64,000 nucleotides of DNA from Eubacteriales bacterium (GTDB taxonomy: Bacteria; Bacillota; Clostridia; Oscillospirales; CAG-382): assembly GCA_045595785.1 (NCBI GenBank), contig JAZOBE010000009.1, positions 5,017 to 69,016 on the forward strand, given 5' to 3'. Position numbers and translations under genes: made by a program. Below, one piece after another: positions 5,183-64,000 of the stretch (its first letter is position 1; the number at the start of each line of letters is the position of its first letter). The notes beneath the pieces were generated by a model, which saw nothing but the letters and a program-made list of their open reading frames with translations, searched no databases and was not told where the DNA came from.

Positions 5183-5239
5183 GTAGGAAATTAAATTGTA
5201 AATCTTTTGCCGTTTGCCATTGTGGGGTGGTCTTTTTTC

Positions 5240-5273
5240 GGGGTCCCCGAGAAACCGAAGGTTTCTTGGGGTG
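5240..5273 (+). repeat. P1 hairpin module between the two tRNA genes
   Basis: GGGGTCCCCGAGAAACCGAAGGTTTCTTGGGGTG. Confidence 0.85.
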
Positions 5274-5282
5274 ATTGTCTTT

Positions 5283-5371
5283 TGGCGGAGAGAGTGGGAT
5301 TCGAACCCACGGCCCGTTGCCGGGTCACTGGTTTTCAAGACCAGCTCCTTAAACCGCTCGGACATCTCTCC
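5283..5371 (-). tRNA. tRNA-Ser (anticodon UGA), encoded CCA
   Basis: Minus-strand read GGAGAGATGTCCGAGCGGTTTAAGGAGCTGGTCTTGAAAACCAG...GTGGGTTCGAATCCCACTCTCTCCGCCA. It has anticodon loop CTTGAAA and a long variable arm. Confidence 0.9.
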
Positions 5372-5576: not shown

Positions 5577-8438
5577 ATGAAAAAAGCATTATCTCTTGTG
5601 CTCAGCTTGGTAATGGTTCTTTCGCTCTGCTCCGCATTCGGACTTGCAGTAAGCGCAGAAGAATCCGTTAACCTGGCAGCAGGTAAGTCCTACACTTATC
5701 CCACTGAAAGTCTTTATAAGCATTGGGATGCAAAGTGGGAAGTAAGCACCAAGGCTGACGTTGTTCTTACCGACGGCGACATAAGCGGCACTTACTATGG
5801 CGAAGGCATGTTCAATGGCTGGTCCAGCGCAGATATCGAGATCGTTGTTGACCTTGAAGCTGCTGCAAGCGTTGAATCCTTCAAGTTCTACGCATACGGC
5901 GGCAAAGACGGTATTTCCGAACCCGCTTCCATCGACATGAGCGTATCCGTAGACGGCGAAAACTGGACTGCAGTTAAATGCACTACCGACGTCGCTAAGA
6001 CCGAAGCTATCACCACTTGGGGTGAAGGCGGCGCATACAACTACGTATTCACCATGACTGCAGCTTCTGCAGTTGAGGCTCGTTACGTTAAGTACGCAAT
6101 CACCAGAAGCGGTCCTTTCATTTTCTGTCAGGAACTTGAAGTTTGGGGCGCAGCTCCTTCCGCAGCTCCCGAAGCAAAGACCCTTAACGTAGACGTAGTT
6201 AACTACTATGACTGGACCGATACCAACTTTGGTGGCGATCTTGGTTCTACTGCTCTTTCCGCAGGTCACATCGTTATGGCTGTTTCCGACACCGCTTCTA
6301 CCATTCCCGACAAGATAGGCGGCCCTTGGTTTACCTGGTGGTACAAGGTTCTGGCAGTTTGGGACGACGCAGCTAAGGCTTACGTTGTAACCGCTACCGA
6401 AGCATCCGGTACATCCGAATACGAGACCTGGACTCTCGGTGAAAACACTATCGCATTCATGTGCAATCTCAGCTTCTCCTCTTCCGAAGTTGCAGGCAAC
6501 GCAGATGACGCTGCTGTACTTGCCGGAATAGTTGTTGGCGATAAGATCACCATTAACGGCACCGATTGGGCAACCCTCGCAGCTACCTCCGGCGCTCTTA
6601 CCGGTGTTTCTCTCGGCATTAACGTTCCCGCTGAAGGCGGAAACGGCGGCACCGTTGTTATCACCAAGGGTGACAACGTTGCTCTTAACAAGACCTATAC
6701 CCTTTCCGGCTGCGGCGAGCGTGCTGCTTACTATGCAAAGCTTACCGACGGCGCTGCTAAGGATTCTATTTCTTACGATAGCAACGAATGGTTCGGCTTC
6801 TACTGCAACGGTGATGACGCTTCCGTTATCAACGCTCCCGACAAGCTCGGTACCGTTGTTATCGACCTCGGCAAGGTTACCGATCTTCACTCTGTAAGAC
6901 TCAACACCGTTAACAACACCGGTTCCGGTATCCCTGCTCCCGAATACATCAAGGTTTCCGTTTCTGATGACGGCGAGACCTATGGTGAAGCAGTTGAACT
7001 TCCCGTTCAGACTGTTGAAGACACTGCTTACTGGACCGAAGCTAACCTTTCCGGCAGCGGCCGTTACGTTAAGGTTGAAATTAAGCTCGGCGGCACCTTC
7101 GCATTCATCAATGAAATCGAAGTTTACGAAGCAGTTAAGACCATCGTTAACGACGGTCCTCAGGTTATCGTAGAAAAGATCACCGTAGACGGCGACCTTA
7201 CCGATACCGGTTGGAACAGCAAGGGCTGGACCAAGGTTTCCGGCAAGAACGGTTCTTGGCAGTATCCTACTCTTAAAGAAGTATCTGAAGGCGCTGAGAT
7301 CCCCACCTTCTCTTACAAGTATCAGCTCCGTGCTGACGACACCAAGCTTTACGGCGCACTTGTTCTTGACGGCGTTCACGAAGTAGTTGACGGCGAAGCT
7401 AAGAACATCAAGGTTCGTATCTGGTTCAGAGACAACGATGAAGCTACCGTATACTCCAGCTTCTATGATTTCGTTCTCGCTCCCGACGGAACTCTTACCA
7501 CCGCAGCTAAGTACAACACCTCTACCACTGAAAACAAGGGTGCTAACATCGAAAACACCACTCTTAACGCAGTTGCAAAGGTTGTAGACGGCAAGACCGT
7601 ATATGAATTCTCCGTAGACGTAGACGAAGTTACCGCTGACGGCAGCTTTGACTACTTCGTATGCCTCGAGCGTAAGCAGGGCGTTAACACCGGTACTCTG
7701 TACTATCCTGCAATTCCCGAGCTTAACGAAACTTCTCCTCACGGCAACCATCCTTGGCTCCTCTGGTACGTAGATAACGATGCAACCGTTAACGTAGCAG
7801 ATATCGCTCTCGGTGAGATCGTTGTTTCCGACAAGGAAGAAGCTGACACCTCTCTTATGGGCACCGCTCCCGCAGATCCCGCTTACAAGACCACCCTTTC
7901 CGTTGAAAACGGCTGGGAAGCAGGCAAGGATCTCCAGGTTAAGGTTACCATCGAGGCTCTTAAGGACGTTAACCTTGCACAGGTTATCTTCAACCTCTTC
8001 TATGACGCTAACGAAGTAACTCCCGTTCTTCCCGCAGAAGAAGATCTTGGCACTCTCGTAACCGCAGGCGCAGATTCCTGGAAGGATTCTTCCATCTTCT
8101 ACCTCGGTGAAACTGATGAAGAAGGCTACGGTCTCCTTATCGGCGCTCCCGGCACCACCAACAAGGATGATGCTCTCAACGCAGGCGATAAGATCGAGAT
8201 CACCCTTACCTTCAAGGTTCTTGATACCGCAAGCGGTCTCATCAACTTCCAGCTTTCCAATGACGAGCTTCTCGGCTACACCTACGAGACTCCCGAAGTT
8301 GCTGACGTTGCAGGCGAAGGCGCTTCTCTCGCAGTTGAAGCTGCAGTTCAGACCGGTGACGCAGGCATCTTCGTTATCGCTGCACTTGCACTCGTTGCAC
8401 TCATTGGTACCGCAGTAGTAATCAAAAAGCGCGCATAA
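5577..8438 (+). CDS. secreted cell-surface protein: two discoidin (F5/8 type C)-like carbohydrate-binding modules, a central beta-rich region, a C-terminal cohesin-like module and a C-terminal membrane anchor
   Basis: 953 aa. Signal peptide ends ..AVSAEE. Two segments end in the discoidin-type patterns RYVKYAI..FCQELEVWG and RYVKVEI..FINEIEVYE. Cohesin-like pattern LQVKVTIEALKDVNLAQVIFNLFYDANEVTPV...IEITLTFKVL. C-terminus is QTGDAG plus a hydrophobic helix plus KKRA. Confidence 0.75.
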   Translation: MKKALSLVLSLVMVLSLCSAFGLAVSAEESVNLAAGKSYTYPTESLYKHWDAKWEVSTKADVVLTDGDISGTYYGEGMFNGWSSADIEIVVDLEAAASVESFKFYAYGGKDGISEPASIDMSVSVDGENWTAVKCTTDVAKTEAITTWGEGGAYNYVFTMTAASAVEARYVKYAITRSGPFIFCQELEVWGAAPSAAPEAKTLNVDVVNYYDWTDTNFGGDLGSTALSAGHIVMAVSDTASTIPDKIGGPWFTWWYKVLAVWDDAAKAYVVTATEASGTSEYETWTLGENTIAFMCNLSFSSSEVAGNADDAAVLAGIVVGDKITINGTDWATLAATSGALTGVSLGINVPAEGGNGGTVVITKGDNVALNKTYTLSGCGERAAYYAKLTDGAAKDSISYDSNEWFGFYCNGDDASVINAPDKLGTVVIDLGKVTDLHSVRLNTVNNTGSGIPAPEYIKVSVSDDGETYGEAVELPVQTVEDTAYWTEANLSGSGRYVKVEIKLGGTFAFINEIEVYEAVKTIVNDGPQVIVEKITVDGDLTDTGWNSKGWTKVSGKNGSWQYPTLKEVSEGAEIPTFSYKYQLRADDTKLYGALVLDGVHEVVDGEAKNIKVRIWFRDNDEATVYSSFYDFVLAPDGTLTTAAKYNTSTTENKGANIENTTLNAVAKVVDGKTVYEFSVDVDEVTADGSFDYFVCLERKQGVNTGTLYYPAIPELNETSPHGNHPWLLWYVDNDATVNVADIALGEIVVSDKEEADTSLMGTAPADPAYKTTLSVENGWEAGKDLQVKVTIEALKDVNLAQVIFNLFYDANEVTPVLPAEEDLGTLVTAGADSWKDSSIFYLGETDEEGYGLLIGAPGTTNKDDALNAGDKIEITLTFKVLDTASGLINFQLSNDELLGYTYETPEVADVAGEGASLAVEAAVQTGDAGIFVIAALALVALIGTAVVIKKRA

Positions 8439-8446
8439 TTCGTTTC

Positions 8447-8695
8447 GCGTGCACATTCGGCGCAGAACCAAAAGCGCAGAATAAATAAAAAGTAAATTAG
8501 AGCTGTCTTTCACTCAATCGAGTGTGAGTCAGCTCTTTTTTGTAGAAATCCGCCTTCGTCGGATTTCATTTTTTAATTGCGCTTTTGTATAAATTTTCGC
8601 GTCGCTCGCTGTAGGTTACTACAGCTCCCGCTAGCGAAAATTCATTCTGCATCCAAATGTGTTACCCGAAACCCGCAAGCAGCGGTTTGTATGGG
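8447..8695. repeat. mosaic palindromic element (variant modules)
   Basis: Terminal motif CGGCGCAGAACCAAAAGCGCA, a strong hairpin at 8500-8540, a P5 hairpin GAAATCCG..CGGATTTC, TGCGCTTTTG, a P3 long hairpin with core GCTGTAGGTTACTACAGC, then TTCTGCATCCAAA. Confidence 0.75.
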
Positions 8696-8706
8696 TGAAT
8701 TTCTCA

Positions 8707-8852
8707 CTTCAGGACGTTGGTTCGGTTAATTGTTGACATTAGTGTGGTGCGAACAGTTTGCGGGAGGGGAACGCAAAGCGTTAAACCCCTCCCCTACAGT
8801 TATCGAAACACCGTAACTTTTCTTGACATTTGTTTTGTTTACATATATAATA
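8707..8852 (+). repeat. promoter-carrying repeat, copy A
   Basis: The 132-nt core 8721-8852 matches 44841-44972 with 7 mismatches. It contains the hairpin GGGAGGGG-N17-CCCCTCCC and ends one base after a -10 hexamer. Confidence 0.9.
8823..8851 (+). promoter_or_regulatory. consensus sigma-A promoter TTGACA-17-TATAAT (inside repeat copy A)
   Basis: TTGACA at 8823-8828, TATAAT at 8846-8851. The ATG of the downstream gene is at 8885. Confidence 0.65.
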
Positions 8853-8884
8853 TAATTACACAAAACCGTTTTGGAGGGGACGAA

Positions 8885-10381
8885 ATGAAAAGAACGATAT
8901 CGTTTATACTTATAGCCCTTATGCTGTGTGCGGTGCTTGCTGCGTGTAATGACAATACAGGCGAGCAAAGCGTTACCGACGTTAGCGTTGGAGATACGGA
9001 ATACGGTGCAGACCTGCCCGTTAAGGACCTTGACGGCAGAGTTATACGTATTCTTTGCAGAGACTGGAACGCCAACGGAAGCGGAAGTATTCTTGGGTTT
9101 GGCGGTGAGATAATCCAGAGGGAGAATTACTCTGAGGACACGGCTTCTGCGGTGGACGTTGCAAAAGCAGAGGTGCGCCGTGTTATTGAAGAAAGATACA
9201 ACTGTGTGCTTACCGGTGATATAAAGGCAGGGGCACAGACCGAATTAAACCAGATAATACAGGACCAGATAGCATCCGGTGCCAGCGGAAGTGCGGCTTA
9301 TGATATTTTGTTTGATAACATTATATACACCGCAGGCTCCTGGATAAACGGGCTGTACGTTGACCTTGCGGATATTGATACGATCGACCTTTCCAACCCC
9401 TGGTGGGACCAGCAGGCGGTTAACGACCTTTCCCTTAACGGAAGCCTGTTCGTTGCCATGGGCGATATAAACACTCAGGATAACGACGGGACCTGGATAG
9501 TATTCTTTAACAAGCGTCTTGCAGGCGAGCTTGCCGCCGAATATGATTTTTACGATATGGTAGATAACGACGAGTGGAACATGGATAACTTTATATCCAT
9601 CTGCAAGGGCGTTACCTATGACAGCAGCGGTGACGGAACGCTGGACGAGTTTGACACCTGGGCGCTGGGCACCGAGCTTTACAACATCTACGTACACGCG
9701 CTGGCATCCGGTGAGAAGATCGCCGCAAAGGATGCAGACGATATGCCCTACCTTTCCTTCCAGACCGAGAGTATGTTTGATATTCTTTCGCAGATAAGCT
9801 CGTTCTACGGCGACAACAACACGGTTATGATTGCAGACGGCGGCAGATTTTCCGGAAAGGGATATCCCAACGTGTTTGAGGCAACGGTTGTAAAGGCGTT
9901 TACCGACGGCAGAGAGCTGTTCTACATGGGCGGATTGATGAATCTTACCGCGTTCCGCGCAATGGAGGACGATTTCGGTATGCTTCCCATTCCCAAGGGC
10001 AACCCCGAGCAGGACAGATATTATCACTCGGTATCCTACCACCAGACCTCCTCTCTGGCTATTCCTCTTAACACTCCCGACGTGGAGGACCTTGGTCTGG
10101 TTATAGAGGCGCTGGGCGCAATGAGCAAGAACAAGGTTACACCCGAATACTACGACCGCACCCTTAAGCTTCAAGCCACCCGTGACGATGAGTCCGGCAG
10201 AATGCTTGATATAATCTTTGATTCCCGTGTGTTTGACCTGGGTTATATCTACGGCTGGGGCGGAGTCGGCTCTGCTTTCTTTAACACTGACCCCAACTAC
10301 GCTTCCCGTTTTGAAGCGGTTGCGGACAAGGCGCAGACGGATATGGAAGAAACGCTGGAAATACTTGACGAATTAAAATAA
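8885..10381 (+). CDS. extracellular solute-binding lipoprotein (ABC transporter family 1-like), no permease genes adjacent
   Basis: The ORF track starts at 8717, but that N-terminus is translated repeat and promoter DNA. The ATG at 8885 has RBS GGAGGGGA and gives the lipoprotein signal MKRTISFILIALMLCAVLAAC. The protein is 498 aa. Confidence 0.7.
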   Translation: MKRTISFILIALMLCAVLAACNDNTGEQSVTDVSVGDTEYGADLPVKDLDGRVIRILCRDWNANGSGSILGFGGEIIQRENYSEDTASAVDVAKAEVRRVIEERYNCVLTGDIKAGAQTELNQIIQDQIASGASGSAAYDILFDNIIYTAGSWINGLYVDLADIDTIDLSNPWWDQQAVNDLSLNGSLFVAMGDINTQDNDGTWIVFFNKRLAGELAAEYDFYDMVDNDEWNMDNFISICKGVTYDSSGDGTLDEFDTWALGTELYNIYVHALASGEKIAAKDADDMPYLSFQTESMFDILSQISSFYGDNNTVMIADGGRFSGKGYPNVFEATVVKAFTDGRELFYMGGLMNLTAFRAMEDDFGMLPIPKGNPEQDRYYHSVSYHQTSSLAIPLNTPDVEDLGLVIEALGAMSKNKVTPEYYDRTLKLQATRDDESGRMLDIIFDSRVFDLGYIYGWGGVGSAFFNTDPNYASRFEAVADKAQTDMEETLEILDELK

Positions 10382-20606: not shown

Positions 20607-20779
20607 CCCCCAAAAAAGGTTTTTAGGATGCTGAGGGTGTTTCACGAAAAATCACCCCTGAAATCCGCACAATACCCACGCCGAAAGGCGAGGAGTTTTG
20701 GATGCAGAAGGAATTTTCGAGAGTGGGGAGCTGTAGTAACCTACTGCCCCCCGAACGAAAATTTCTTATGCGCCAAAAG
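20607..20779. repeat. mosaic palindromic element (P6 + P3 modules)
   Basis: 20607-20672 is the reverse complement of the insert unit seen twice at 61553-61737. 20696-20779 is a P3 long hairpin with core GCTGTAGTAACCTACTGC. Confidence 0.75.
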
Positions 20780-29434: not shown

Positions 29435-29463
29435 TTGACAAATATGGGTTTTTCAAGTATAAT
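29435..29463 (+). promoter_or_regulatory. consensus sigma-A promoter TTGACA-17-TATAAT
   Basis: TTGACA at 29435-29440, TATAAT at 29458-29463, 45 nt upstream of the 29508 ATG. Confidence 0.6.
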
Positions 29464-38315: not shown

Positions 38316-38596
38316 GAACGCGGAGTATTCGGCGCAGAAGAAATCTTTTACGAGCGGAATCTCCACCCCACAAAACCGAAGGTTTTGCGGGGAACCCCGG
38401 GAGCTGTACAAAGGTACAGCAAGCGAAGTAAAAGTTTCTACAAAAACGCAATGCAAATAAATTTTGAGGAAATCCTGCAAGGATTTCTACCGCAAAAATC
38501 GTAATTACCACGGACGGTCGGGGACGCCCGTCCCTACCGATTACCAAAATCTTTTAGTGTGTGCGTTTTTGGTTCTGCGTTGAATAAACGCGTTCC
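38316..38596. repeat. complete mosaic palindromic element with terminal inverted repeats
   Basis: Left TIR GAACGCGGAGTATTCGGCGCAGAA. P3 with a P1 (38364-38398) nested in its arm. CAAAAACGCA (38441-38450). P5 GAAATCCTGCAAGGATTTC. P2 GGACGGTCGGGGACGCCCGTCCC. TGCGTTTTTGG (38563). Right TIR TTCTGCGTTGAATAAACGCGTTCC. Confidence 0.85.
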
Positions 38597-40078: not shown

Positions 40079-40107
40079 TAACTCACGGCTACAATAATTA
40101 AAAATCC

Positions 40108-40423
40108 GAAGGACGCAGGATATTTGGCGGGGTCCCCGAAAATCGAAGATTTTTGGGGTGCCTTTGGCGCAGAAAACGTCTTTCGCGAGCGTGGCGTAGT
40201 AACCTACGACTAGCGAAGCGAAAGCGGTTACAAAAACGCAAAACAAATAAATTTGCAGGAAATCCTGCAAGGATTTCTACCGATAAAACCGTGAGAAAAA
40301 CGGACGGTCGGGGACGCCCGTCCCTACGGTTAACGAAACCTTTTAGTATGTGCGTTTTTGGTTTCGGGGTCCCCGCAAATCGAAGATTTGTGGGGTGACT
40401 TGTGCGGCAAATAGGCGCGTCCC
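40108..40423. repeat. complete mosaic palindromic element
   Basis: TIR GAAGGACGCAGGATATTTGGCGG, P1 (40129-40160), P3 (40163-40240), CAAAAACGCA, P5, P2, TGCGTTTTTG (40351-40360), P1 (40366-40397), then TIR ..GCGGCAAATAGGCGCGTCCC. Confidence 0.9.
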
Positions 40424-40432
40424 AAATGTATT

Positions 40433-41491
40433 ATGAGAATATTAATATTCGGAGGAGCCTTTGACCCTCCCCACCAAGGTCACGTTAATGCGGCGAAAGC
40501 GGCGTATGACCGAATAAAGCCCGATATTTTCTATATTATCCCTGCCTTTGACCCGCCGTTGAAGGATGCTCCCGTTACCCAAAGCAGCCACAGAATGAAT
40601 ATGTGCGCGCTGGCTTTTGGAGATATACCCAACGCGGTGGTTTCGGATATTGAGATAAAGCGTGGGGAAAAGAGCTATACCTATATAACTCTGGCAGAAA
40701 TAAAGGAAAAGCACCCCGAAAGCGAAATTTTTCTGCTTGTGGGCGCTGACCAGCTTGAGCAGTTTGAGAAATGGGCGCGTTACGAGTATATTCTTGAAAA
40801 CTGCACCCTTTGCGTTGCAGGCAGAGGCGAAAAGGAAATAAACAAAAAGTACGAAAAGGTTATTCTGTTGGAAAACGAGAAAACCGATATATCCTCCACC
40901 GAAATTCGGGCAGGTGTGCGGGATAAGCTTCCCGAAAAGGTGTATGAATATATAAAGGAAAAGGGGCTTTACCGCGGAAACCACGTTGAAGGGGTTATTA
41001 AGTACGCGGAGATGCTGAGGGCGGATTGCTTCCCTCACCTTGATAAAGCCGACGTGTTTACCGCCGCCTCTATGCACGACAGCACCAAGGGACTTGACCA
41101 GCAGGCGATATTTGAAAGCCACGGTGTGGAGATTGACAGCGATATGAAAAATTCCCCTGCGGTGATGCACGCATTTACCGCCGCACTGAATATGGAAAAG
41201 CAGGGGGAAAAAGAGAGCGTTGTAAACGCTGTCCGCTACCATACAACCGGCAGACCGAATATGACGGATATTGAAAAAGTGGTTTTTATTGCCGATTATA
41301 TCGAGGAAAACAGGCGGTACGACCATTGTGTCCGTATGCGGAACGAATATCTGAAGCACCGCGGAAGCACGGATATAAACAACATGATAAAGCAAATACT
41401 AAATTCCACCGTACAGCATCTTGAGGAAAAAGGGGATTTTATTCACCCTCTTACCTTGCAGGCGATGGAATATTATAAACAAGGAGAATAA
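40433..41491 (+). CDS. nadD: fused nicotinate-nucleotide adenylyltransferase (NadD) and HD-domain YqeK phosphohydrolase
   Basis: The N-terminal half has GGAFDPPHQGH and ISSTEIR. The C-terminal half has the HD-domain pattern H..HD....RYHTTG..ADYIE, as in YqeK. Confidence 0.85.
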   Translation: MRILIFGGAFDPPHQGHVNAAKAAYDRIKPDIFYIIPAFDPPLKDAPVTQSSHRMNMCALAFGDIPNAVVSDIEIKRGEKSYTYITLAEIKEKHPESEIFLLVGADQLEQFEKWARYEYILENCTLCVAGRGEKEINKKYEKVILLENEKTDISSTEIRAGVRDKLPEKVYEYIKEKGLYRGNHVEGVIKYAEMLRADCFPHLDKADVFTAASMHDSTKGLDQQAIFESHGVEIDSDMKNSPAVMHAFTAALNMEKQGEKESVVNAVRYHTTGRPNMTDIEKVVFIADYIEENRRYDHCVRMRNEYLKHRGSTDINNMIKQILNSTVQHLEEKGDFIHPLTLQAMEYYKQGE

Positions 41492-41495
41492 ATAA

Positions 41496-41837
41496 ATGGC
41501 AGAAGTTGCATTACAGGATAAGATTGCCGCAGTTGCTAAAGAAGCACTTGACAGCAAGAACGGACAAGATATAAAGGCGTTGCACGTTGCGAAGCAGACC
41601 GTGCTGGCAGACTGGTTCGTGCTGGCGACGGGTACGTCAAACACACATATAAACACCCTTGCAGACGAGGTTGAGTTCAAGGTAAAGGAACAGCTTGGTG
41701 TTGACCCTATCCGCACCGAGGGCAGAGGAAATAATATGTGGATATTGGTGGACTACGGCTCTGTTATAGTTCACGTGTTTACAAAAGAAGGCAGAGAGTT
41801 CTATAAGCTTGACAAGCTCTGGGCAGATATCAAGTAA
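41496..41837 (+). CDS. rsfS: ribosome silencing factor RsfS
   Basis: 113 aa. LADWFVLATGTSNTH..WILVDYGSVIVHVF..REFYKLDKLW. Confidence 0.92.
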   Translation: MAEVALQDKIAAVAKEALDSKNGQDIKALHVAKQTVLADWFVLATGTSNTHINTLADEVEFKVKEQLGVDPIRTEGRGNNMWILVDYGSVIVHVFTKEGREFYKLDKLWADIK

Positions 41838-41843
41838 ATTGTA

Positions 41844-42183
41844 GGAACGCGGCTATTTAACGCAGATCCAAAAACGCAAAAATTTATATAATTTCTGTTC
41901 AGCAAATTTCCGGTTGTAGGGACGGGCGTCCCCGAAGCGCACCCCACAAATGCTAATTCGCATTTGCGAGGACCCCGCTCCGACGCCCCGCATTCCCGCA
42001 GCCAAATAAGGTAAATTTTTGTAGAATAAATCTACAAAAATTATTTCACATGCGTTTTTGTAACCGCTTTCGCTTCGCTAGTCGTAGATTACTACGCCAC
42101 GCTTGCGAAAGACGTTTTCTGCGCCAAAGGCACCCCAAAAATCTTCGATTTTCGGGGACCCCGCTAAATATCCTGCGTTCTTC
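41844..42183. repeat. complete mosaic palindromic element (exemplar)
   Basis: TIR GGAACGCGGCTATTTAACGCAGATC, CAAAAACGCA, P2 + P1 double hairpin (41916-41999), P4 TTTTTGTAGAATAAATCTACAAAAA, TGCGTTTTTG (42051), P3, P1 (42131-42162), then TIR GCTAAATATCCTGCGTTCTTC. Confidence 0.9.
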
Positions 42184-42248
42184 AGACTTTTGGGTTTTAC
42201 AGCCGTGGCTTGCCCTTGCAATTTGATTATTATTTTCAGGTGATATAT

Positions 42249-44646: not shown

Positions 44647-44826
44647 TCGGGCGTGTATCTTGGGTCAGACCAAAAACGCAAAAGATACAATAAAATGTAT
44701 CGAAAACCGTAGGGGACGGCGTCCCCGACGTCCCGAAAACAAATAAAACTGCAGGAATCCGCTTGATGCGGATTCCTTTCATTTTATGTTCGCGTTTTTG
44801 TTCTGATTTGTTTTACCATCGCTCCC
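44647..44826. repeat. mosaic palindromic element
   Basis: ..GGTCAGACCAAAAACGCA, P2-like GTAGGGGACGGCGTCCCCGACGTCCC, P5-like GGAATCCGC-ttgat-GCGGATTCC, then CGCGTTTTTGTTCTGA... Confidence 0.8.
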
Positions 44827-44972
44827 TTCAGGCCATTTGCTTCGGTTAATTGTTGACGTTGGTGTAGTGCGAACAGTTTGCGGGAGGGGAACGCAAAGCG
44901 TTAAACCCCTCCCCTACAGTTATCGAAACACCGTAACATTTCTTGACATTTGCTCTTTTTACATATATAATA
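44826..44972 (+). repeat. promoter-carrying repeat, copy B
   Basis: See 8707-8852. The 132-nt core 44841-44972 has 7 mismatches to copy A. Confidence 0.9.
44943..44971 (+). promoter_or_regulatory. consensus sigma-A promoter TTGACA-17-TATAAT (inside repeat copy B)
   Basis: TTGACA at 44943-44948, TATAAT at 44966-44971. The downstream ATG is at 45001. Confidence 0.65.
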
Positions 44973-45000
44973 CCCCTATAAAAACAACGGAGGAACAACT

Positions 45001-45768
45001 ATGGATACCGTAAACACTCCCGTACAGAAAAAACCCTTTCCCATTGCGGCGATTGGATTTATACTGCTTGCGCTCACATTTATGTTTCAGGCGCTTTCCC
45101 CGCTGCTCACTTATGTTTTTAACACCCGCCCTGCCGAACATTTCTCTCTTTTAGACAGGTTTGACATTCCCATACTGTTGATACAGTTGGTTCTGATAGC
45201 ATTTACCGTTTCGCTGGTGTGCATGCTTTTTATCGGAAAGAACAACATCGTTGTCTTTGTTTGTCTTTTGGGTATGTCCCTTTGGCATGTGGGCACTGCA
45301 GTGCAGGATCTGTTTAACTATATTCAAGCCTTTAAGATGTACGGCGAGTTTGATGCTATTCCTCCCCGTTTTCTCACCTCGCTGATAACCTCATTGGTTT
45401 CAAATGCAGCCATAACCATTTGCGGATTCCTCGGTTTCCTTATACTTGCCCTTGCCGCCCTTTTTGCTTACAAGGGCAAAAAAAAGCTTACTTTGATATG
45501 GATTCTTGCCACGGTGCTGTTTGCCGTTCCCCTTGTAATTTCCGTCTTGGCAACGATTTCCTACGCTGTGTCCCTTTTTTCCGATTGGAAACTTTTCATT
45601 TATTGGATCGATAAGATTATAAAGCACCTTGCTTTTCCTCCCTTCGGACATAATCTTAACAACCTCGCCTACAACGTGGCTACGGGTTTCATTTCCATTG
45701 CCGTAAATCTGCTTCTTGTTATCAATTCCGCTTTGCTGGGATTGCATTTTAAGAAAATATCACAATAA
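45001..45768 (+). CDS. hypothetical polytopic membrane protein
   Basis: 255 aa, about 7 hydrophobic helices, RBS ACGGAGGAA. Confidence 0.6.
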   Translation: MDTVNTPVQKKPFPIAAIGFILLALTFMFQALSPLLTYVFNTRPAEHFSLLDRFDIPILLIQLVLIAFTVSLVCMLFIGKNNIVVFVCLLGMSLWHVGTAVQDLFNYIQAFKMYGEFDAIPPRFLTSLITSLVSNAAITICGFLGFLILALAALFAYKGKKKLTLIWILATVLFAVPLVISVLATISYAVSLFSDWKLFIYWIDKIIKHLAFPPFGHNLNNLAYNVATGFISIAVNLLLVINSALLGLHFKKISQ

Positions 45769-45788: not shown

Positions 45789-45819
45789 AGGAATCCGTTT
45801 AATACGGGTTCCTTTTTTG
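45789..45819 (+). terminator. rho-independent terminator
   Basis: AGGAATCCGT-ttaat-ACGGGTTCCT followed by TTTTTT. Confidence 0.7.
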
Positions 45820-45880
45820 TTATAAACTTTGATACACAAATATACCTATCAAAACTTTAACCAAAATTTATAACTTTATA

Positions 45881-45909
45881 TTGACAAACCCGTAAACGTG
45901 TGGTAAAAT
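45881..45909 (+). promoter_or_regulatory. sigma-A promoter TTGACA-17-TAAAAT with TGn extension
   Basis: TTGACA at 45881-45886, TGGTAAAAT at 45901-45909. Confidence 0.55.
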
Positions 45910-45967
45910 GCAATTGCAAGATAAACGAAGGTTTATAAGCAAATTGAAAACGGAGGTAAACTATATT

Positions 45968-46657
45968 ATGACAAAAGTTTTGGTTATAGACGATGATAAC
46001 AACATTTGCGAGCTATTGCGCATGTATCTTGAGAAAGAGGGATACGAGGTACGCACCGCAAACAACGGGCAGGAGGGCGTAAACCTTTTCCGTATGTATG
46101 AGCCGGATATGGTTCTGCTGGATATTATGATGCCGGTTAAGGACGGCTGGCAGACCTGCAGAGAGATCCGTGAGCATTCCTCCAAGCCTATAATAATGAT
46201 AACCGCAAAGGGAGAGACTATAGACAAGGTGCTGGGGCTTGAGCTGGGCGCAGACGATTTTATAGTTAAGCCCTTGGATATGAAAGAGGTGTTCGCACGC
46301 ATCAAGGCAGTGCTCCGCAGATACGTTAACCGCGACACTTCCGACGGAGAGCTTATCCGTTTTGAAAATCTTGAGATATCCAGACAAAAGTACGAGCTTA
46401 AGATAAAGGGCAAAGCAGTTGACCTGCCTCCCAAGGAATTGGAGCTGATATACTTCCTTGCCACCAACTACAACCGTGTGTTTACCAGAGACCAGCTGCT
46501 TGATAAGGTTTGGGGCTTTGATTATCTGGGCGACAGCCGCACCGTCGACGTACACATCAAGCGTCTCCGTGAGAAGCTGGAGGGCGCATCCGAAAAATGG
46601 GCGTTAAAGACCGTTTGGGGCGTAGGCTATAAGTTTGAGGTAACTGCTGAAGAATGA
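45968..46657 (+). CDS. OmpR/PhoB-family response regulator
   Basis: ATG at 45968 (MTKVLVIDDD..) with RBS ACGGAGG. Receiver domain (DMVLLDIMMP, phospho-acceptor Asp) and winged-helix C-terminus (RTVDVHIKRLREKL..VWGVGYKF). Confidence 0.9.
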   Translation: MTKVLVIDDDNNICELLRMYLEKEGYEVRTANNGQEGVNLFRMYEPDMVLLDIMMPVKDGWQTCREIREHSSKPIIMITAKGETIDKVLGLELGADDFIVKPLDMKEVFARIKAVLRRYVNRDTSDGELIRFENLEISRQKYELKIKGKAVDLPPKELELIYFLATNYNRVFTRDQLLDKVWGFDYLGDSRTVDVHIKRLREKLEGASEKWALKTVWGVGYKFEVTAEE

Positions 46658-48663: not shown

Positions 48664-48784
48664 AACGCCGGATTTGGATGCAGAGCCAAAAACGCAACAA
48701 GTAAAAGGTTTCGATAATCGTAGGGACGAAGCGCACCCCACAAATGCTAATTCGCATTTGCAGGGACCCCGCTACGGGCGTCCG
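48664..48784. repeat. partial mosaic element (one terminus + double hairpin)
   Basis: CGCCGGATTTGGATGCAGAGCCAAAAACGCA, then GTAGGGACG..P1(48734-48770)..CGGGCGTCCG. Confidence 0.8.
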
Positions 48785-50580: not shown

Positions 50581-50714
50581 GGAACGCATCTATTTGATGC
50601 AGAGCCAAAAACGCAAAATATAATATAGTTTTTGTAAACGTCTTTACTTCGCCGGCTGTGGATTATACAGCACGGTCGTAAAGAACGTTTTCTGCATTTG
50701 AAAGCCCTGCGTCC
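50581..50714. repeat. mosaic palindromic element (TIR + boundary motif + P3 + TIR)
   Basis: GGAACGCATCTATTTGATGCAGAGCCAAAAACGCA, P3 with core GCTGTGGATTATACAGC (50629-50700), then ..TTCTGCATTTGAAAGCCCTGCGTCC. Confidence 0.85.
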
Positions 50715-50797
50715 ATCAGACAATCAGTATTATAGACAATTGTTTCGTGCGAACAGTTTGATAACACCCACAGCTACAATCTTAAAGGATTATAAAA

Positions 50798-54077: not shown

Positions 54078-54108
54078 CCGTGGCGGCTGTAATTATATAA
54101 AATCTGAT

Positions 54109-54242
54109 GAACGCAGAGCTTTTGGATGCAGAAAACGTTCTTTACGAGCGTGCTGTAGTAACCTACAGCCAGCGAAGTAAAGACGTTTACAAAAACTATA
54201 TTATATTTTGCGTTTTTGGGTCTGCATCCAAGTGCTCCGCCC
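54109..54242. repeat. mosaic palindromic element (TIR + P3 + boundary motif + TIR)
   Basis: GAACGCAGAGCTTTTGGATGCAGAA, P3 with core GCTGTAGTAACCTACAGC (54120-54196), then TGCGTTTTTGGGTCTGCATCCAAGTGCTCCGCCC. Confidence 0.85.
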
Positions 54243-55536: not shown

Positions 55537-55565
55537 TTGACAAACTGTTAAAACTTATATATAAT
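55537..55565 (+). promoter_or_regulatory. consensus sigma-A promoter TTGACA-17-TATAAT
   Basis: TTGACA at 55537-55542, TATAAT at 55560-55565. Confidence 0.6.
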
Positions 55566-56368: not shown

Positions 56369-56659
56369 TCCGCGTCTATTTGACGCAGATCCAAAAACGC
56401 AATGTTATATAGATGTTCGCTGTAATAAACACCCAATGTAGGGGCGATTCACAAACCACACCCCACAAATGCCATTGGCATTTGCGAGGACCCCGTGGAA
56501 TCGCCCGCTTATTCCACAGCAAAAATTAAGGTAAATTTTTGTAGAATAAATCTACAAAAATTATTTATTTGCGTTTTTGTAAACGTCTTTACTTCGCTAG
56601 CTGTAGATTACTACAGCACGCTCGTAAAGAACGTTTTCTGCGCCAAATATCCTGCGTCC
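56369..56659. repeat. complete mosaic palindromic element, same module order as 41844-42183
   Basis: TCCGCGTCTATTTGACGCAGATCCAAAAACGCA, double hairpin (56438-56508), P4 (identical to 42010-42046), TGCGTTTTTG (56570), P3 with core GCTGTAGATTACTACAGC, then TTCTGCGCCAAATATCCTGCGTCC. Confidence 0.9.
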
Positions 56660-59000: not shown

Positions 59001-59350
59001 TTCTGTGCGGCGGGGGCAAGCCACCCGCCCTACAAACACGCCACGGCTACCGGCTACAGCATCCAAAATCAGAACAGAGCGATGGTAAAAAGCTGTAAAA
59101 ACCATTTTTACGAGTGGGGAGCTGTAGTATTCTACTGCCCCCCGAGTAAAAACGGTTAGAAACGCAAAATTAAAAATTCCCGTAGATTTGTTCTACGGGA
59201 ATTTACCTTATATTTGATTGTGGGGAAGCGGGGCGTCGGAGCGGGGTCCCTGCAAATGCGGCCAGCATTTGAGGGGTGCGTTTCGAGGGCGCCGCCCCCT
59301 ACATTGGATGTTCGCCGAAGCAAACATTAAACATTTTTGCGTTTCGTTCT
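59001..59350. repeat. mosaic palindromic element cluster (variant modules)
   Basis: Hairpin GGCGGG..CCCGCC (59009-59030). P3 with core GCTGTAGTATTCTACTGC (59085-59165). GAAACGCA boundary variant. Hairpin ATTCCCGTAGA..TCTACGGGAAT (59175-59205). Double hairpin in opposite orientation (59226-59302, P1 at 59243-59278). TGCGTTTC boundary variant. Confidence 0.8.
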
Positions 59351-61419: not shown

Positions 61420-61493
61420 AATGTTCAATTTAATTTTCCCTTCAACATTGTGAGCTAATAAAAACAATTAACTCTTTGTTTTTCTTTTTTTGT

Positions 61494-61746
61494 GGGGTCC
61501 CCGAGAAACCGCAGGTTTCTTGGGGTGTTTTTTTTGTGGGGTCCCCGAGAAAGCGTTTTTACGGAATAATATACCGTCTGTATGGGGTGTTTCGTGAAAC
61601 ACCCATCGTTATCTAAAAACCTTTCTTGGGGCGTTTTTTTTGTGGGGTCCCCGAGAAAGCGTTTTTACGGAACAATATACCGTCTGTATGGGGTGTTTCG
61701 TGAAACACCCATTGTTATCTAAAAACCTTTCTTGGGGTTTTTCGGT
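61494..61746. repeat. P1 hairpin followed by two tandem 106-bp units, each a P1 hairpin split by a 69-nt nested insert
   Basis: Intact P1 at 61494-61527. Units begin at 61535 and 61641 (period 106) and read GGGGTCCCCGAGAAA-[insert]-CCTTTCTTGGGG. Confidence 0.9.
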
Positions 61747-61960: not shown

Positions 61961-62329
61961 TTAATTACCTATACCGTCATCGCAAAGGAGTGCCGCCCCA
62001 ACCAATACCTTTTTAAGCTGCTTTTCCACTACGGCGCTTGACGCGGTCATACAGCTTTGCCGGGCGACTGCCACTATAATATAACCATCCTTTACTTGCG
62101 GATAAAGACTGCGGAACGCCGCCCTTATTATCCGCTTTGCACGGTTTCTTTGTACCGCTTTACCCCGTTTCTTGGATACGGTTATTCCAAGACGGGTTTT
62201 GTTTTGGGCGTTTCGGTCTTTAATAACATAAACCGCCACGCAGGGCTGGACGTAGCATTTTCCTCTGCCGTACGCCAAGCCGAAAAGGTGATTTTGCTTT
62301 AACGAAGTAACTTTTTTTGTTTCCTGCAA
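61961..62329 (-). CDS. rnpA: ribonuclease P protein component
   Basis: TTG start with RBS AAGAGGTG 7 nt upstream. [22 protein letters not shown]. Located between rpmH and yidD. Confidence 0.9.
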
Positions 62330-62389
62330 AATGTAACACCTCTTAAAAAAAATAAAAGCAAGAAAAAATAAAACAGACTGATATGAATT

Positions 62390-62421
62390 ACCCCAAGAAA
62401 CTTTCCGTTTCTTGGGGAACC
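62390..62421 (-). repeat. P1 hairpin module between rpmH and rnpA
   Basis: ACCCCAAGAAACTTTCCGTTTCTTGGGGAACC. Confidence 0.75.
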
Positions 62422-62489
62422 TCGAAAAAAACCGATATATTCGGATTTTTATCGATAATCAATCACTGTTTTTTACCCTTAAAAAGAAA

Positions 62490-62624
62490 TTAATAGGTAA
62501 GTCTTGCTCTGCCTTTAGCGCGTCTTCTCTTGAGAACCTTTCTGCCGTTAGCGGTAGCCATTCTCTTTCTGAAGCCGTGTTCTTTCTGTCTGTGGATCTT
62601 TTTGGGCTGATATGTTCTGAGCAT
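62490..62624 (-). CDS. rpmH: 50S ribosomal protein L34
   Basis: Not in the ORF track (44 aa). The minus-strand translation is [44 protein letters not shown], with RBS AGGAGGTG upstream. Confidence 0.95.
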
Positions 62625-62742
62625 TCGGAATACACCTCCTGTAAATTTTCAAAAAAATAATTGCGCCGTTACAATACCTAAACATAGGCAAATGCTATTA
62701 TAAACATAAAAACAAGGATTTGTCAAGGGTTTTTTTGAAAAA

Positions 62743-62822
62743 AATGAGAAATGATAAACGATAAACGATAAATAAATGTTGTTTTTTTGCACGTCGTGCA
62801 AAAATCTTCCGCATTTCTCATT
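62743..62822 (-). repeat. 80-bp palindromic element, second family, copy 2 (inverted relative to 35575-35655)
   Basis: AATGAGAAATG..TTTTGCACG-T-CGTGCAAAA..CATTTCTCATT. Confidence 0.75.
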
Positions 62823-62844
62823 AAAACTATATCATACTAAATAC

Positions 62845-62873
62845 TTGAATTTTACTAACATCTATGTTATAAT
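62845..62873 (+). promoter_or_regulatory. sigma-A promoter TTGAAT-17-TATAAT with TGn extension, upstream of dnaA
   Basis: TTGAAT at 62845-62850, TGTTATAAT at 62865-62873. Confidence 0.5.
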
Positions 62874-62905
62874 ATAATATATATATTTATAATATAGGGG
62901 TTTCT

Positions 62906-64000
62906 ATGGATTTTACAAGACCGGACGTCCAGGAAAAGCTTCTTAACTCGGTTTACGAGGATATGAGAACTAAGCTGTCCGAAGCGTCTTTTAACTGGCT
63001 TTTTAAGAATACCGTAATTTCATATATTTCCGACACGCAGGTTGACCTGCTTACCCACGACATGGTGGCGGAGGATACCATTAACCGCAGATATCTGGGT
63101 GATCTGGAGGAGGCGTTTTCCAAATACATGCTTACTCCCGTTAAGGTTTCAGTCCACAGCAAGATGAGCCGGCCCGAGAAAAAGGTGGAAAAGGAAGAGG
63201 ATGACGACAGTAAGTACACCGCGTACAAGCTTAGGTACAACCCTAACTTTACCTTTGAGAATTTCGTTATCGGTTCCTCAAACCAGGTGGCGGCAAAGGC
63301 TTCCTACGCCATTGCGGAGCATCCTGCGGAGTTATATAATCCGCTGTTTATATACGGCCCTCCCGGACTGGGTAAAACACATTTGCTGTTTGCAATAGTA
63401 AACCACATCCGCAAGAATAATCCACATACTGACATACTGTATAAGACGGGTGAGGAATTCACACAGGAAATGGTGGATTCTCTGGTGCAGAAATCCAACG
63501 TGGCGTTCAGAGAAAAGTACCGTAATCTGGACGTTTTGCTTATCGACGATATTCAGTTTATCGAGGGTAAGGATAAAACGCAGGAAGAGTTTTTCCACAC
63601 GATAGACACACTTTTTCAACAGCAAAAGCAGGTAATAATCACATCTGACCGTCCGCCTAAGGAAATTAACCTTGAGGACAGGCTGAGAAGCCGCTGTGAA
63701 ATGGGTCTGATTGCGGACATAAAACCGCCGGATACCGAGCTGAGAACAGCCATATTCAAGAAAAAGAGCGTGGATATGGGTGTGGATATTCCGGACAACG
63801 TGCTGGGATTTTTGGCAGAAAATATTAAAACCAACATCCGTCAGATAGAAGGAGCAATTAAAAAATTAAAGGCTCATTCGTTTATTGAGGATAGAAAAAT
63901 AACCCTCGATATGGCGGTATCGGTGCTGAGCGAATATCTTAAAACCGCAGAAACGCAGGATAATAAAATACAAAATATATTTGATTATATCTGCAAAAAA
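62906..64000 (+). CDS. dnaA: chromosomal replication initiator protein DnaA (3' end beyond the window)
   Basis: Not in the ORF track because there is no stop in the window. The frame is open from the ATG at 62906. Walker A GPPGLGKTHL, Walker B LLIDDIQF, and ITSDRPPKE..RLRSR.E.GL. Confidence 0.95.
   Translation, partial: MDFTRPDVQEKLLNSVYEDMRTKLSEASFNWLFKNTVISYISDTQVDLLTHDMVAEDTINRRYLGDLEEAFSKYMLTPVKVSVHSKMSRPEKKVEKEEDDDSKYTAYKLRYNPNFTFENFVIGSSNQVAAKASYAIAEHPAELYNPLFIYGPPGLGKTHLLFAIVNHIRKNNPHTDILYKTGEEFTQEMVDSLVQKSNVAFREKYRNLDVLLIDDIQFIEGKDKTQEEFFHTIDTLFQQQKQVIITSDRPPKEINLEDRLRSRCEMGLIADIKPPDTELRTAIFKKKSVDMGVDIPDNVLGFLAENIKTNIRQIEGAIKKLKAHSFIEDRKITLDMAVSVLSEYLKTAETQDNKIQNIFDYICKK

Follow-up and report, generated by a model that had tools for sequence, protein, structure and literature searches.

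A probably duplicated promoter region with an embedded REP-like hairpin upstream of two unrelated genes in a Clostridia genome

[quoted passage not shown] The GTAG super-family of repetitive extragenic palindromic (REP) sequences is recognized by an unpaired GTAG beside a short GC-rich extragenic palindrome, where the REP-associated tyrosine transposase (RAYT) cleaves (PMC3733652), and its criteria also include, usually, more than 100 copies per genome and an associated RAYT gene flanked by repeats. The survey by Di Nocera (2013) lists GTAG repeats in Proteobacteria, Cyanobacteria, Chloroflexi and the Planctomycetes, Verrucomicrobia and Chlamydiae (PVC) group, with Firmicutes unmentioned (PMC3733652), and group 1 RAYT genes have been reported in Clostridia (PMC5581495). 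In the Correia elements of Neisseria, as summarized in the mobile-promoter survey, the promoter lies inside the element or at its junction, at many loci (Siddique et al. 2011, in PMC3575422). Here we analyze a pair of similar promoter regions, copies A and B, in a 64-kb stretch of a Eubacteriales bacterium (contig JAZOBE010000009.1, the window), which we compared with the related loci and contigs L001-L016. Each copy contains a GC-rich hairpin next to a predicted promoter.

A repeat search within the window aligned 8717-8852 with 44837-44972 without gaps at 94% identity, the mismatches falling at 8720, 8738, 8741, 8746, 8818, 8833, 8835 and 8837. Allowing one gap extended the alignment to 8703-8852 and 44822-44972, with 92% identity over 151 nt and E=5e-52. 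An earlier reading made from the letters of the window (the sequence-only reading) had counted seven mismatches between 8721-8852 and 44841-44972, as does our list. It had also placed the copies 33 nt (A) and 29 nt (B) upstream of two unrelated genes, in agreement with start codons at 8885 and 45001.

8703..8852, + strand: copy A, full aligned extent, from the 92% identity over 151 nt to 44822-44972
44822..44972, + strand: copy B, from the repeat alignment to copy A
8885..10381, + strand: highly strain-variable gene downstream of copy A, for a 498-aa lipoprotein of the extracellular solute-binding type, with a signal peptide and lipobox
45001..45768, + strand: strain-variable gene downstream of copy B, for a 255-aa polytopic membrane protein with about six hydrophobic segments and no family assignment

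The best BLASTP match between the two proteins has E=0.10, and the same promoter-bearing sequence does precede two unrelated genes, as claimed. By the definition given above the pair is a putative mobile promoter: 93 of 97 positions agree between 8735-8831 of copy A and 44855-44951 of copy B. The pair does not lie within a gene-level segmental duplication, which the sequence-only reading had named as an outcome that would count against it. The similarity could in principle reflect chance or an assembly artefact, for some of the source assemblies are metagenome-assembled genomes (MAGs) and contigs break at the repeat. With the E-value of the alignment, and with NCBI, ENA, JGI and Logan assemblies each yielding both loci independently, next to the same flanking genes every time, we regard this as practically negligible.

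We consider it probable that copies A and B are a duplicated intergenic control region, made up of an ordinary strong sigma-A promoter and a selfish palindromic repeat just upstream of its -35. The unit would consist of the predicted promoter, originally with its 5' untranslated region (UTR), and a 71-nt passenger resembling a REP or a MITE (miniature inverted-repeat transposable element). The promoter would be native to the operon encoding the membrane protein and a response regulator, and one old event, in which the intergenic stretch as a whole was duplicated or recombined, would have placed an equivalent region before the lipoprotein gene. Dispersed repeats shared among the intergenic regions probably aided that event, and recombination between them is a plausible route; the direction from B to A is favoured, though not proven. 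The parts of the passenger are as follows, where A2 is the alignment of the hairpin family and R1 is a covariance model of it.

8731..8746, + strand: left conserved motif, yWGACr..GTkTn, directly 5' of the core, conserved in members from L004, L005, L012, L015 and L016
8747..8817, + strand: 71-nt core of copy A, consisting of GTGCGAACAGTTTGC, the hairpin and CTACAGTTATCGAAACACCGTAAC; a REP/MITE-like family member, identical in A and B (A2, R1)
8762..8793, + strand: GC-rich hairpin with an 8-bp outer stem and an inner AACGC/GCGTT stem, exact in both copies, with stem compensation across the family
8794..8797, + strand: unpaired tag CTAC adjoining the stem (GTAG on the opposite strand); its column is nearly invariant in A2
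44867..44937, + strand: 71-nt core of copy B (hairpin 44882-44913, CTAC 44914-44917), from sequence match and R1

The sequence-only reading had described a perfect TTGACA-17-TATAAT promoter in both copies, and each indeed scores 12 of 12.

8823..8851, + strand: sigma-A type promoter of copy A, TTGACA-17-TATAAT, 12/12 match, predicted start near 8858
44943..44971, + strand: sigma-A type promoter of copy B, for the membrane-protein operon, 12/12 match, predicted start near 44978

In copy A the hexamers occupy 8823-8828 and 8846-8851, 17 nt apart. The window holds six such 12/12 sites in 64 kb, so promoter perfection by itself says little. The further perfect sites, with spacings of 17 or 18 nt, are at 29435, 49731, 55537 and 62726(-); that at 55537 starts as the left motif of A and B does, with ATTGTTGACA, and its end, TATATATAATAATTATAC, is like the -10 region of copy A. 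Among six full copies of the element, the -35 and -10 hexamers are invariant and the spacer is constant at 17 nt, whereas 5 of the 17 spacer positions vary. Fixed hexamers with a variable spacer are the pattern expected of a working promoter, albeit by a weak test (p=0.06). The hexamers, a spacing within 16-18 nt and conservation among orthologues place the site among sigma-A (sigma-70 type) promoters, as predicted from sequence, and we infer that both promoters fire from the starts given above. A second promoter beginning at the TTGACA at 8733 was rejected: no -10 is present there, and the promoter scan reports none.

Related loci were collected in several ways. A 20-mer from the hairpin was searched in species-representative genome contigs, a search that misses variant hairpins, and it pointed to one related genome, the MAG JAZSIT01 (Eubacteriales bacterium), with three matching places: L004 and L003, which are orthologous to copy A and copy B respectively, and L002, a tandem B copy before a membrane-protein paralogue. 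The match at L001 was dismissed as chance. A metagenome scan yielded the single contig L005, and two scans of viral contigs yielded nothing. Protein search or contig look-up added the B-type loci L006, L007, L008-L010 and L011, the A-type loci L012-L014, and the more distant solute-binding-protein loci L015 and L016.

The B-type promoter with its 5' UTR is conserved in L003, L002, L006, L007, L008 and L011; down to 67% protein identity (L011), B-type loci keep both hexamers, the spacer length of 17 nt, the 5' UTR and the ribosome-binding site. The part upstream of the promoter is not conserved at B-type loci. In L006, 11 unrelated bases replace the left motif and the hairpin; in L007, 13 nt of the motif are missing (CGAACAGTTTGCG); in L011, only the 3' arm of the hairpin is left. 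All three retain the promoter and the 5' UTR. Since the promoter is present without the hairpin in L006 and L011, it does not arrive with the hairpin. From these loci we judge that the promoter belongs to the genes, that is, to the homologues of the membrane-protein gene, whether orthologues or paralogues, and not to the hairpin.

In the window strain the A/B similarity stops at 8852 and 44972, one base past the -10, exactly where the sequence-only reading had ended it in both copies. As an edge of the element, this end did not survive comparison with other strains: the A-type copy of L012 (TATAATAACCCTGTACAAAC...ACGGAGGG) stays like the B-type copies (TATAATAACCCTATAAAAAC..ACGGAGG) through the 5' UTR to the ribosome-binding site. 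Since this copy resembles the B-type past the -10, the original duplication reached about the ribosome-binding site, and the abrupt end at 8852 is best read as later divergence in the window lineage, not as an element boundary. Upstream, the A-type and B-type copies of other strains (L012, L003, L007) can be aligned back to the end of another repeat, module X.

8568..8657, + strand: module X, another dispersed hairpin repeat, upstream of copy A; nine copies in the window

The left end of the duplicated unit falls in this module, which is common in the window genome. Judged by these alignments, the duplicated unit is most of an intergenic region, about 230-300 nt. The differences diagnostic of A-type and B-type copies hold from strain to strain, which gives no hint of recent spread.

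Exact copies of the hairpin GGGAGGGGAACGCAAAGCGTTAAACCCCTCCC stand at 8762-8793 and 44882-44913, where chance would give none, and its fold energy is -21.9 kcal/mol; the hairpin with an internal AACGC/GCGTT palindrome that had been noticed in each copy is confirmed. It belongs to a family. The family pattern runs from the left motif yWGACr..GTkTn through GTGCGAACAGTTyGC and a GC-rich hairpin to CTAC-GGTTATCGAAyACCCGCGGC, the right side after the hairpin also being written CTAC-GGTTATCGAA and, in the member list, CTACGGTTATCGAA. Other members lie at L015:19354, L016:5553/7954/11097/11339, L005:122, L012:344 and L002:2320; with R1 the listed members score 63-97 bits, apart from the incomplete L016:5553 at 33.6 bits. 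According to the gene tables, the members in L012, L015 and L016 mostly stand in 3'-3' intergenic regions, flanked by convergent genes. The A/B hairpin itself recurs at L012:444-475, with different flanks and between convergent genes. None of the other members listed has a promoter after the core.

The stems of the family vary in a compensated manner. In the family alignment, 84% of the cells are paired, compared with 73% in shuffles and 41-64% in slid controls; 13 cells changed on both sides, and none of 500 shuffles reached the observed level. Stems that differ and yet pair include GGGACGATG/CATCGTCCC, GGGCTGACG/CGTCAGCCC, GGCGGA/TCCGCC and GGGCGGGG/CCCCGCCC, the last compensating relative to GGGAGGGG/CCCCTCCC. 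Within the window, R1 finds A and B as the only full members, plus four partial relatives.

50731..50787, + strand: hairpin-less relative (left motif, GTGCGAACAGTTTG and a remnant of the right motif) upstream of a DUF512 radical-SAM gene; R1 33.7 bits
44676..44740, - strand: partial relative, a GTAG-tagged hairpin and right motif without the left motif; R1 38.3 bits
40275..40360, + strand: partial relative, hairpin and CTACGGTTAACGAAAC; R1 37.0 bits
38511..38571, + strand: partial relative, hairpin and right motif; R1 22.4 bits

The first of these bears out the decayed fragment that the sequence-only reading had seen at 50738-50760 upstream of the DUF512 gene. There, 50747-50760 matches GTGCGAACAGTTTG exactly, identity over the 32 nt of 50729-50760 is 81%, and the orthologue at L002:7475-7530 has the same form. 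Readings of GTGCGAACAGTTTG as a sigma-54 site, a LexA (Cheo) box or a GAAC..CGTC site of the extracytoplasmic function (ECF) type were rejected on inspection, as the spacing or partner motif does not fit and they are not conserved across the family. The family thus has 2 full and 4 partial copies in the 64-kb window, and L016 has 4-6 in 13.5 kb.

The tag is shared more widely. In a neutral census of perfect, GC-rich hairpins, taken over the window and five related loci with the tag read on the appropriate strand, GTAG stood directly beside the stem on 13 of 36 hairpins, with at least eight different stem sequences. The hexamer GTAGGG occurs 20 times in the window, about half of them within the approximately 8 kb of intergenic DNA, where it stands ahead of palindromes. 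The hairpin is 32 nt long in A and B and 20-22 nt in the relatives, all of them intergenic. The family shares with GTAG-tagged REPs a short (20-40 bp) GC-rich extragenic palindrome and an unpaired end GTAG.

Evidence that the hairpin family is mobile comes from a site next to the response regulator gene.

45809..45835, + strand: empty site, at which a 78-nt family member (GGGCGGGG variant) is inserted in MAG JAZSIT01 (alignment A3)

The site is filled in JAZSIT01 (L002:2320-2397), where the insert has the terminator of a membrane-protein paralogue on one side and the response regulator gene's promoter on the other, and empty in the window, L006 and L008; the family therefore shows presence/absence polymorphism at an orthologous site, as a mobile repeat would. 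The junctions fit an imperfect 8-nt target-site duplication (TTTTGTTA / TTTTGTTG) around 70 nt, or equally 78 nt without duplication. An assignment to MITEs with terminal inverted repeats of about 15-30 bp was rejected, the 12 nt on either side of the stem, compared by inspection, matching in inverted orientation at 6 of 12 positions only; the ends share a direct ACAGTT, and the repeat search gave no inverted repeat bounding the unit. On the evidence of these loci, the hairpin family appears to move, or to be lost, on its own, and it normally carries no promoter.

This bears directly on the mobile promoter cassette of the sequence-only reading. Part of the region is mobile DNA, as it had proposed, and the mobile part is the 71-nt hairpin core, not the promoter. 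That the repeat spread the promoter is contradicted by at least eight other family members in related genomes that lack it, and by the promoter being kept where the hairpin is lost. Nor was a range of genes found behind the unit: the 20-mer search of the related MAG returned only the A orthologue, the B orthologue and the tandem B copy, and over that scan and the loci examined there are two gene contexts only, although variant hairpins would escape the 20-mer. One may still imagine that a whole unit of about 150 nt, from the left motif to the promoter, transposes or is copied as one with an outward promoter, or, as a variant, that the 3' end of the element (TTTTsTTG) supplies the TTG of the -35. 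The promoter begins 5 nt past the core in both copies; the L002 insert ends in TTTTGTTG where A and B have TTTTCTTG / ATTTCTTG, followed by ACA; and the downstream genes are unrelated. The promoterless relatives and the two contexts speak against it, as does homology that runs past wherever the element could plausibly end, reaching module X on the upstream side and, in L012, the ribosome-binding site on the downstream side, together with the stable A-type and B-type differences. We consider such a cassette quite improbable.

Several observations weigh against the duplication reading itself, most of all the constancy of the core. Among the six copies, 0 of 71 core columns vary, as opposed to 19 of 78 flank columns (p=1.6e-6); these copies all come from one species, with a leuS baseline identity of 98-100%, so the independent information lies mostly in the comparison of A with B. 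Within the window, that comparison gives 0 of 71 differences in the core and 8 of 65 in the flanks (p=0.002). A neutral passenger as old as its flanks would be expected to have diverged too. The invariant core possibly points to selection, to later homogenization, to later site-specific insertion at both paralogous promoters, or to uneven mutation rates. In addition, the -10 region of the solute-binding-protein gene in L015 (ATATATAATAACC) resembles those of A and B, which makes the direction and age of the duplication less certain, and Pfam found no transposase among the 29 window proteins. A RAYT (HUH/Y1 transposase) gene was likewise absent from these 29 proteins and from the gene tables of L012, L015 and L016; it could sit elsewhere in the genome. 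On the side of the duplication reading, the solute-binding-protein homologues at 77% (L015) and 69% (L016) identity have no such element upstream.

A special conservation of the element between strains was considered and rejected: the window and JAZSIT01 are already 98-100% identical in leuS. The genes for the F5/8-type C protein, the lipoprotein and the membrane protein are only 50-95% identical between the two. With leuS at 98-100%, the identity of the element between strains is the baseline, and the divergent coding regions are the anomaly.

The constancy of the core could mean that it is a shared cis-regulatory module, in which the core or its inner AACGC-AAA-GCGTT palindrome is a selected binding site and one regulator, possibly the OmpR-type regulator encoded at 45908-46657, acts at both loci. 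Besides the invariant core within variable flanks, the distance from core to -35 is equal at both loci, the response regulator gene lies within the B operon, and both downstream genes encode strain-variable envelope proteins. On the other hand, L006, L007 and L011 lost some or all of the core and kept the promoter, the same hairpin stands between convergent genes in L012, and members in L015 and L016 lie in 3'-3' intergenic regions. Compensatory stems are typical of a structure in single-stranded DNA or RNA rather than of a double-stranded operator, and 45881 holds a separate promoter for the response regulator gene. We consider a shared module unlikely, if the least improbable of the alternatives. 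The operator, or regulator site, that the sequence-only reading saw in the hairpin is accordingly weakened by the copy between convergent genes (L012:444-475) and by the strains that lost it at the B promoter; an invariant core amid variable flanks leaves a regulatory role a small chance. On balance we infer that the hairpin does not regulate. A related idea is that the REP-like core was domesticated: two loci for strain-variable envelope proteins would share it as a regulatory or insulating element, and for that reason it would have stayed constant at both promoters. It would then also belong to the first described GTAG-tagged REP-type system in Clostridia. To this we give little credence.

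The compensated stems also invite the idea that the core encodes a structured RNA (a small RNA, a leader or a 3' stabilizer), transcribed from upstream or by read-through. Hairpin covariation would fit, and on the + strand the region folds better than shuffled sequences (z=-3.4). Several facts tell against it: Rfam gives no match in 8540-8900 even at E<=10, and the whole window contains two tRNAs only at the gathering score; the core stands after the terminator of the upstream gene and before the only predicted promoter; no T-run follows the hairpin on either strand; and the copies stand in both orientations relative to neighbouring genes. A structured RNA seems to us very improbable. The hairpin was also dismissed as an intrinsic terminator: CTACAG follows it on the + strand and GCAAAC on the - strand, neither with a T-run, and the terminator scan reports neither strand. 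Sub-threshold Rfam matches in L016 were set aside as hairpin noise; one at L016:11250-11330 (-), in a repeat-rich intergenic region, is to the Gut-1 RNA at 29 bits against a gathering score of 50 and is probably of this kind.

The window is core chromosome, with leuS, nadD, rsfS, der, plsY, rarA, nusB, ispA, yidC, rnpA, mutS and spoIIE. Pfam and NCBIfam gave no direct match for either protein downstream of A and B; homologues of the copy A protein carry PF13416 and PF01547, and its gene has 67-95% DNA identity to the JAZSIT01 orthologue. The variable genes relative to L004 and L003 span 5577-10381 and 45001-45768. Amid these divergent flanks, 8726 to about 9085, which covers the core, the promoter and the signal-peptide region, is nearly identical between strains, which suggests allele exchange at variable loci. 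Where the window has one membrane-protein gene between leuS and the response regulator gene, other strains have two or three tandem paralogues (L002:127-2274, L006:1432-2910, L008:113-1591); at these loci contigs break within the repeat, L002 and L008 starting inside it. At the far end of the window (61961-64000), rnpA at 61961-62329 (-), an rpmH-like small open reading frame (ORF) (-) and an AT-rich stretch before an ORF starting at 62906 suggest that this end may lie near the replication origin. The 300-aa ORF 564-1466 contains, at 675-1024, a tandem repeat of 15 nt (11 in-register copies of a 71-nt reference) that codes for a repeat region rich in Glu, Ser, Pro and Lys.

The intergenic regions of the window are mosaics of short repeats, with 55 direct and 62 inverted repeat families. 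Module X, of about 70-90 nt (GCGTTTTTGTAAACG..CTTCGC.GCTGTAG.TTACTACAGC..CGTAAAGAACGTTTTCTGCG), occurs in both orientations between housekeeping genes, at 8568-8657, 20697-20764, 38398-38457, 40169-40241, 42044-42122, 50593-50720, 54103-54231, 56560-56641 and 59117-59176; one copy stands upstream of the fragment at 50747. It resembles a hairpin inserted in an inverted copy of the CCAAAAACGCAA motif. The motif GCAGAnCCAAAAACGCAA appears within a few bases after stop codons at 8446-8482, 41846-41882, 44660-44690, 48664-48700, 50583-50619 and 56369-56405, and inverted ahead of some genes, for example at 38546-38596 and 54189-54225. Two 171-nt inverted repeats, 40084-40254 and 42037-42207, are 90% complementary and flank nadD-like and rsfS genes (40433-41837); they are built of the same intergenic modules in opposite orientation. 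A hairpin family without the GTAG tag, GGGGTCCCCGAGAAACCGnAGGTTTCTTGGGGT, is found at 1511-1563, 5233-5285, 38366-38392, 40128-40169, 40365-40406, 61487-61539 and 62391-62417. At 61516-61727, between yidC-like and rnpA genes, a 106-nt unit is tandemly duplicated with 97% identity.

In its short modules of variable order and orientation, this mosaic recalls the bacterial interspersed mosaic elements (BIMEs) found in enterobacteria and the mosaic repeat clusters between Neisseria genes (PMC2817692, PMC3733652), module X, the CCAAAAACGCAA motif and the several hairpin families being the comparable units. The module sequences differ from those of both, and no binding proteins or functions are known for the window modules. 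The hairpin family, in turn, resembles GTAG-tagged REPs and REPINs (PMC2817692, PMC3733652, PMC3116915) in its GC-rich palindrome, unpaired GTAG and compensatory stems, as well as in its occurrence in both orientations, in mosaic intergenic arrays and with presence or absence among strains (Nunvar 2010; Di Nocera 2013; Bertels and Rainey 2011). It differs from REPs in its host, a Clostridia-class MAG, and in a hairpin with a conserved motif on each side, about 15 and 20 nt long; within the loop of the A/B hairpin a second stem-loop is nested, and no RAYT gene was seen in the window proteins or in the gene tables of L012, L015 and L016. We liken the family to REPs without classing it as one: in the window and related contigs, it seems to work like a REP. 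A GTAG-tagged, covarying hairpin family with one insertion polymorphism in an uncultured Clostridia lineage, a group for which the REP surveys consulted do not report it, may interest specialists more than the promoter pair.

A small repeat beside the -35 of a gene recalls Correia elements and the insertion-sequence ends with outward or hybrid promoters, the known precedents for promoter-supplying repeats. In contrast to Correia elements, the family as a whole has no promoter, the promoter persists where the repeat is deleted, and no promoter sits within a repeated mobile unit at many loci. A close likeness is that to the putative mobile promoters (PMC3575422): a similar non-coding pair at -150 to -50 of non-paralogous genes, here with 92-96% identity. 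Unlike those in general, this pair has an anatomy that can be resolved, a native promoter with an embedded palindromic repeat, and a history that can be traced across strains. Near-identical upstream sequence is accordingly neither evidence of a shared operator nor proof that a repeat brought the promoter. Overall, the pair fits an established form of promoter reuse rather than a mobile cassette that carries a promoter, and offers a detailed case of it from a gut-type Clostridia genome with mosaic intergenic repeats, in which a strong native promoter was probably copied to an unrelated gene along with the selfish palindromic repeat beside it.

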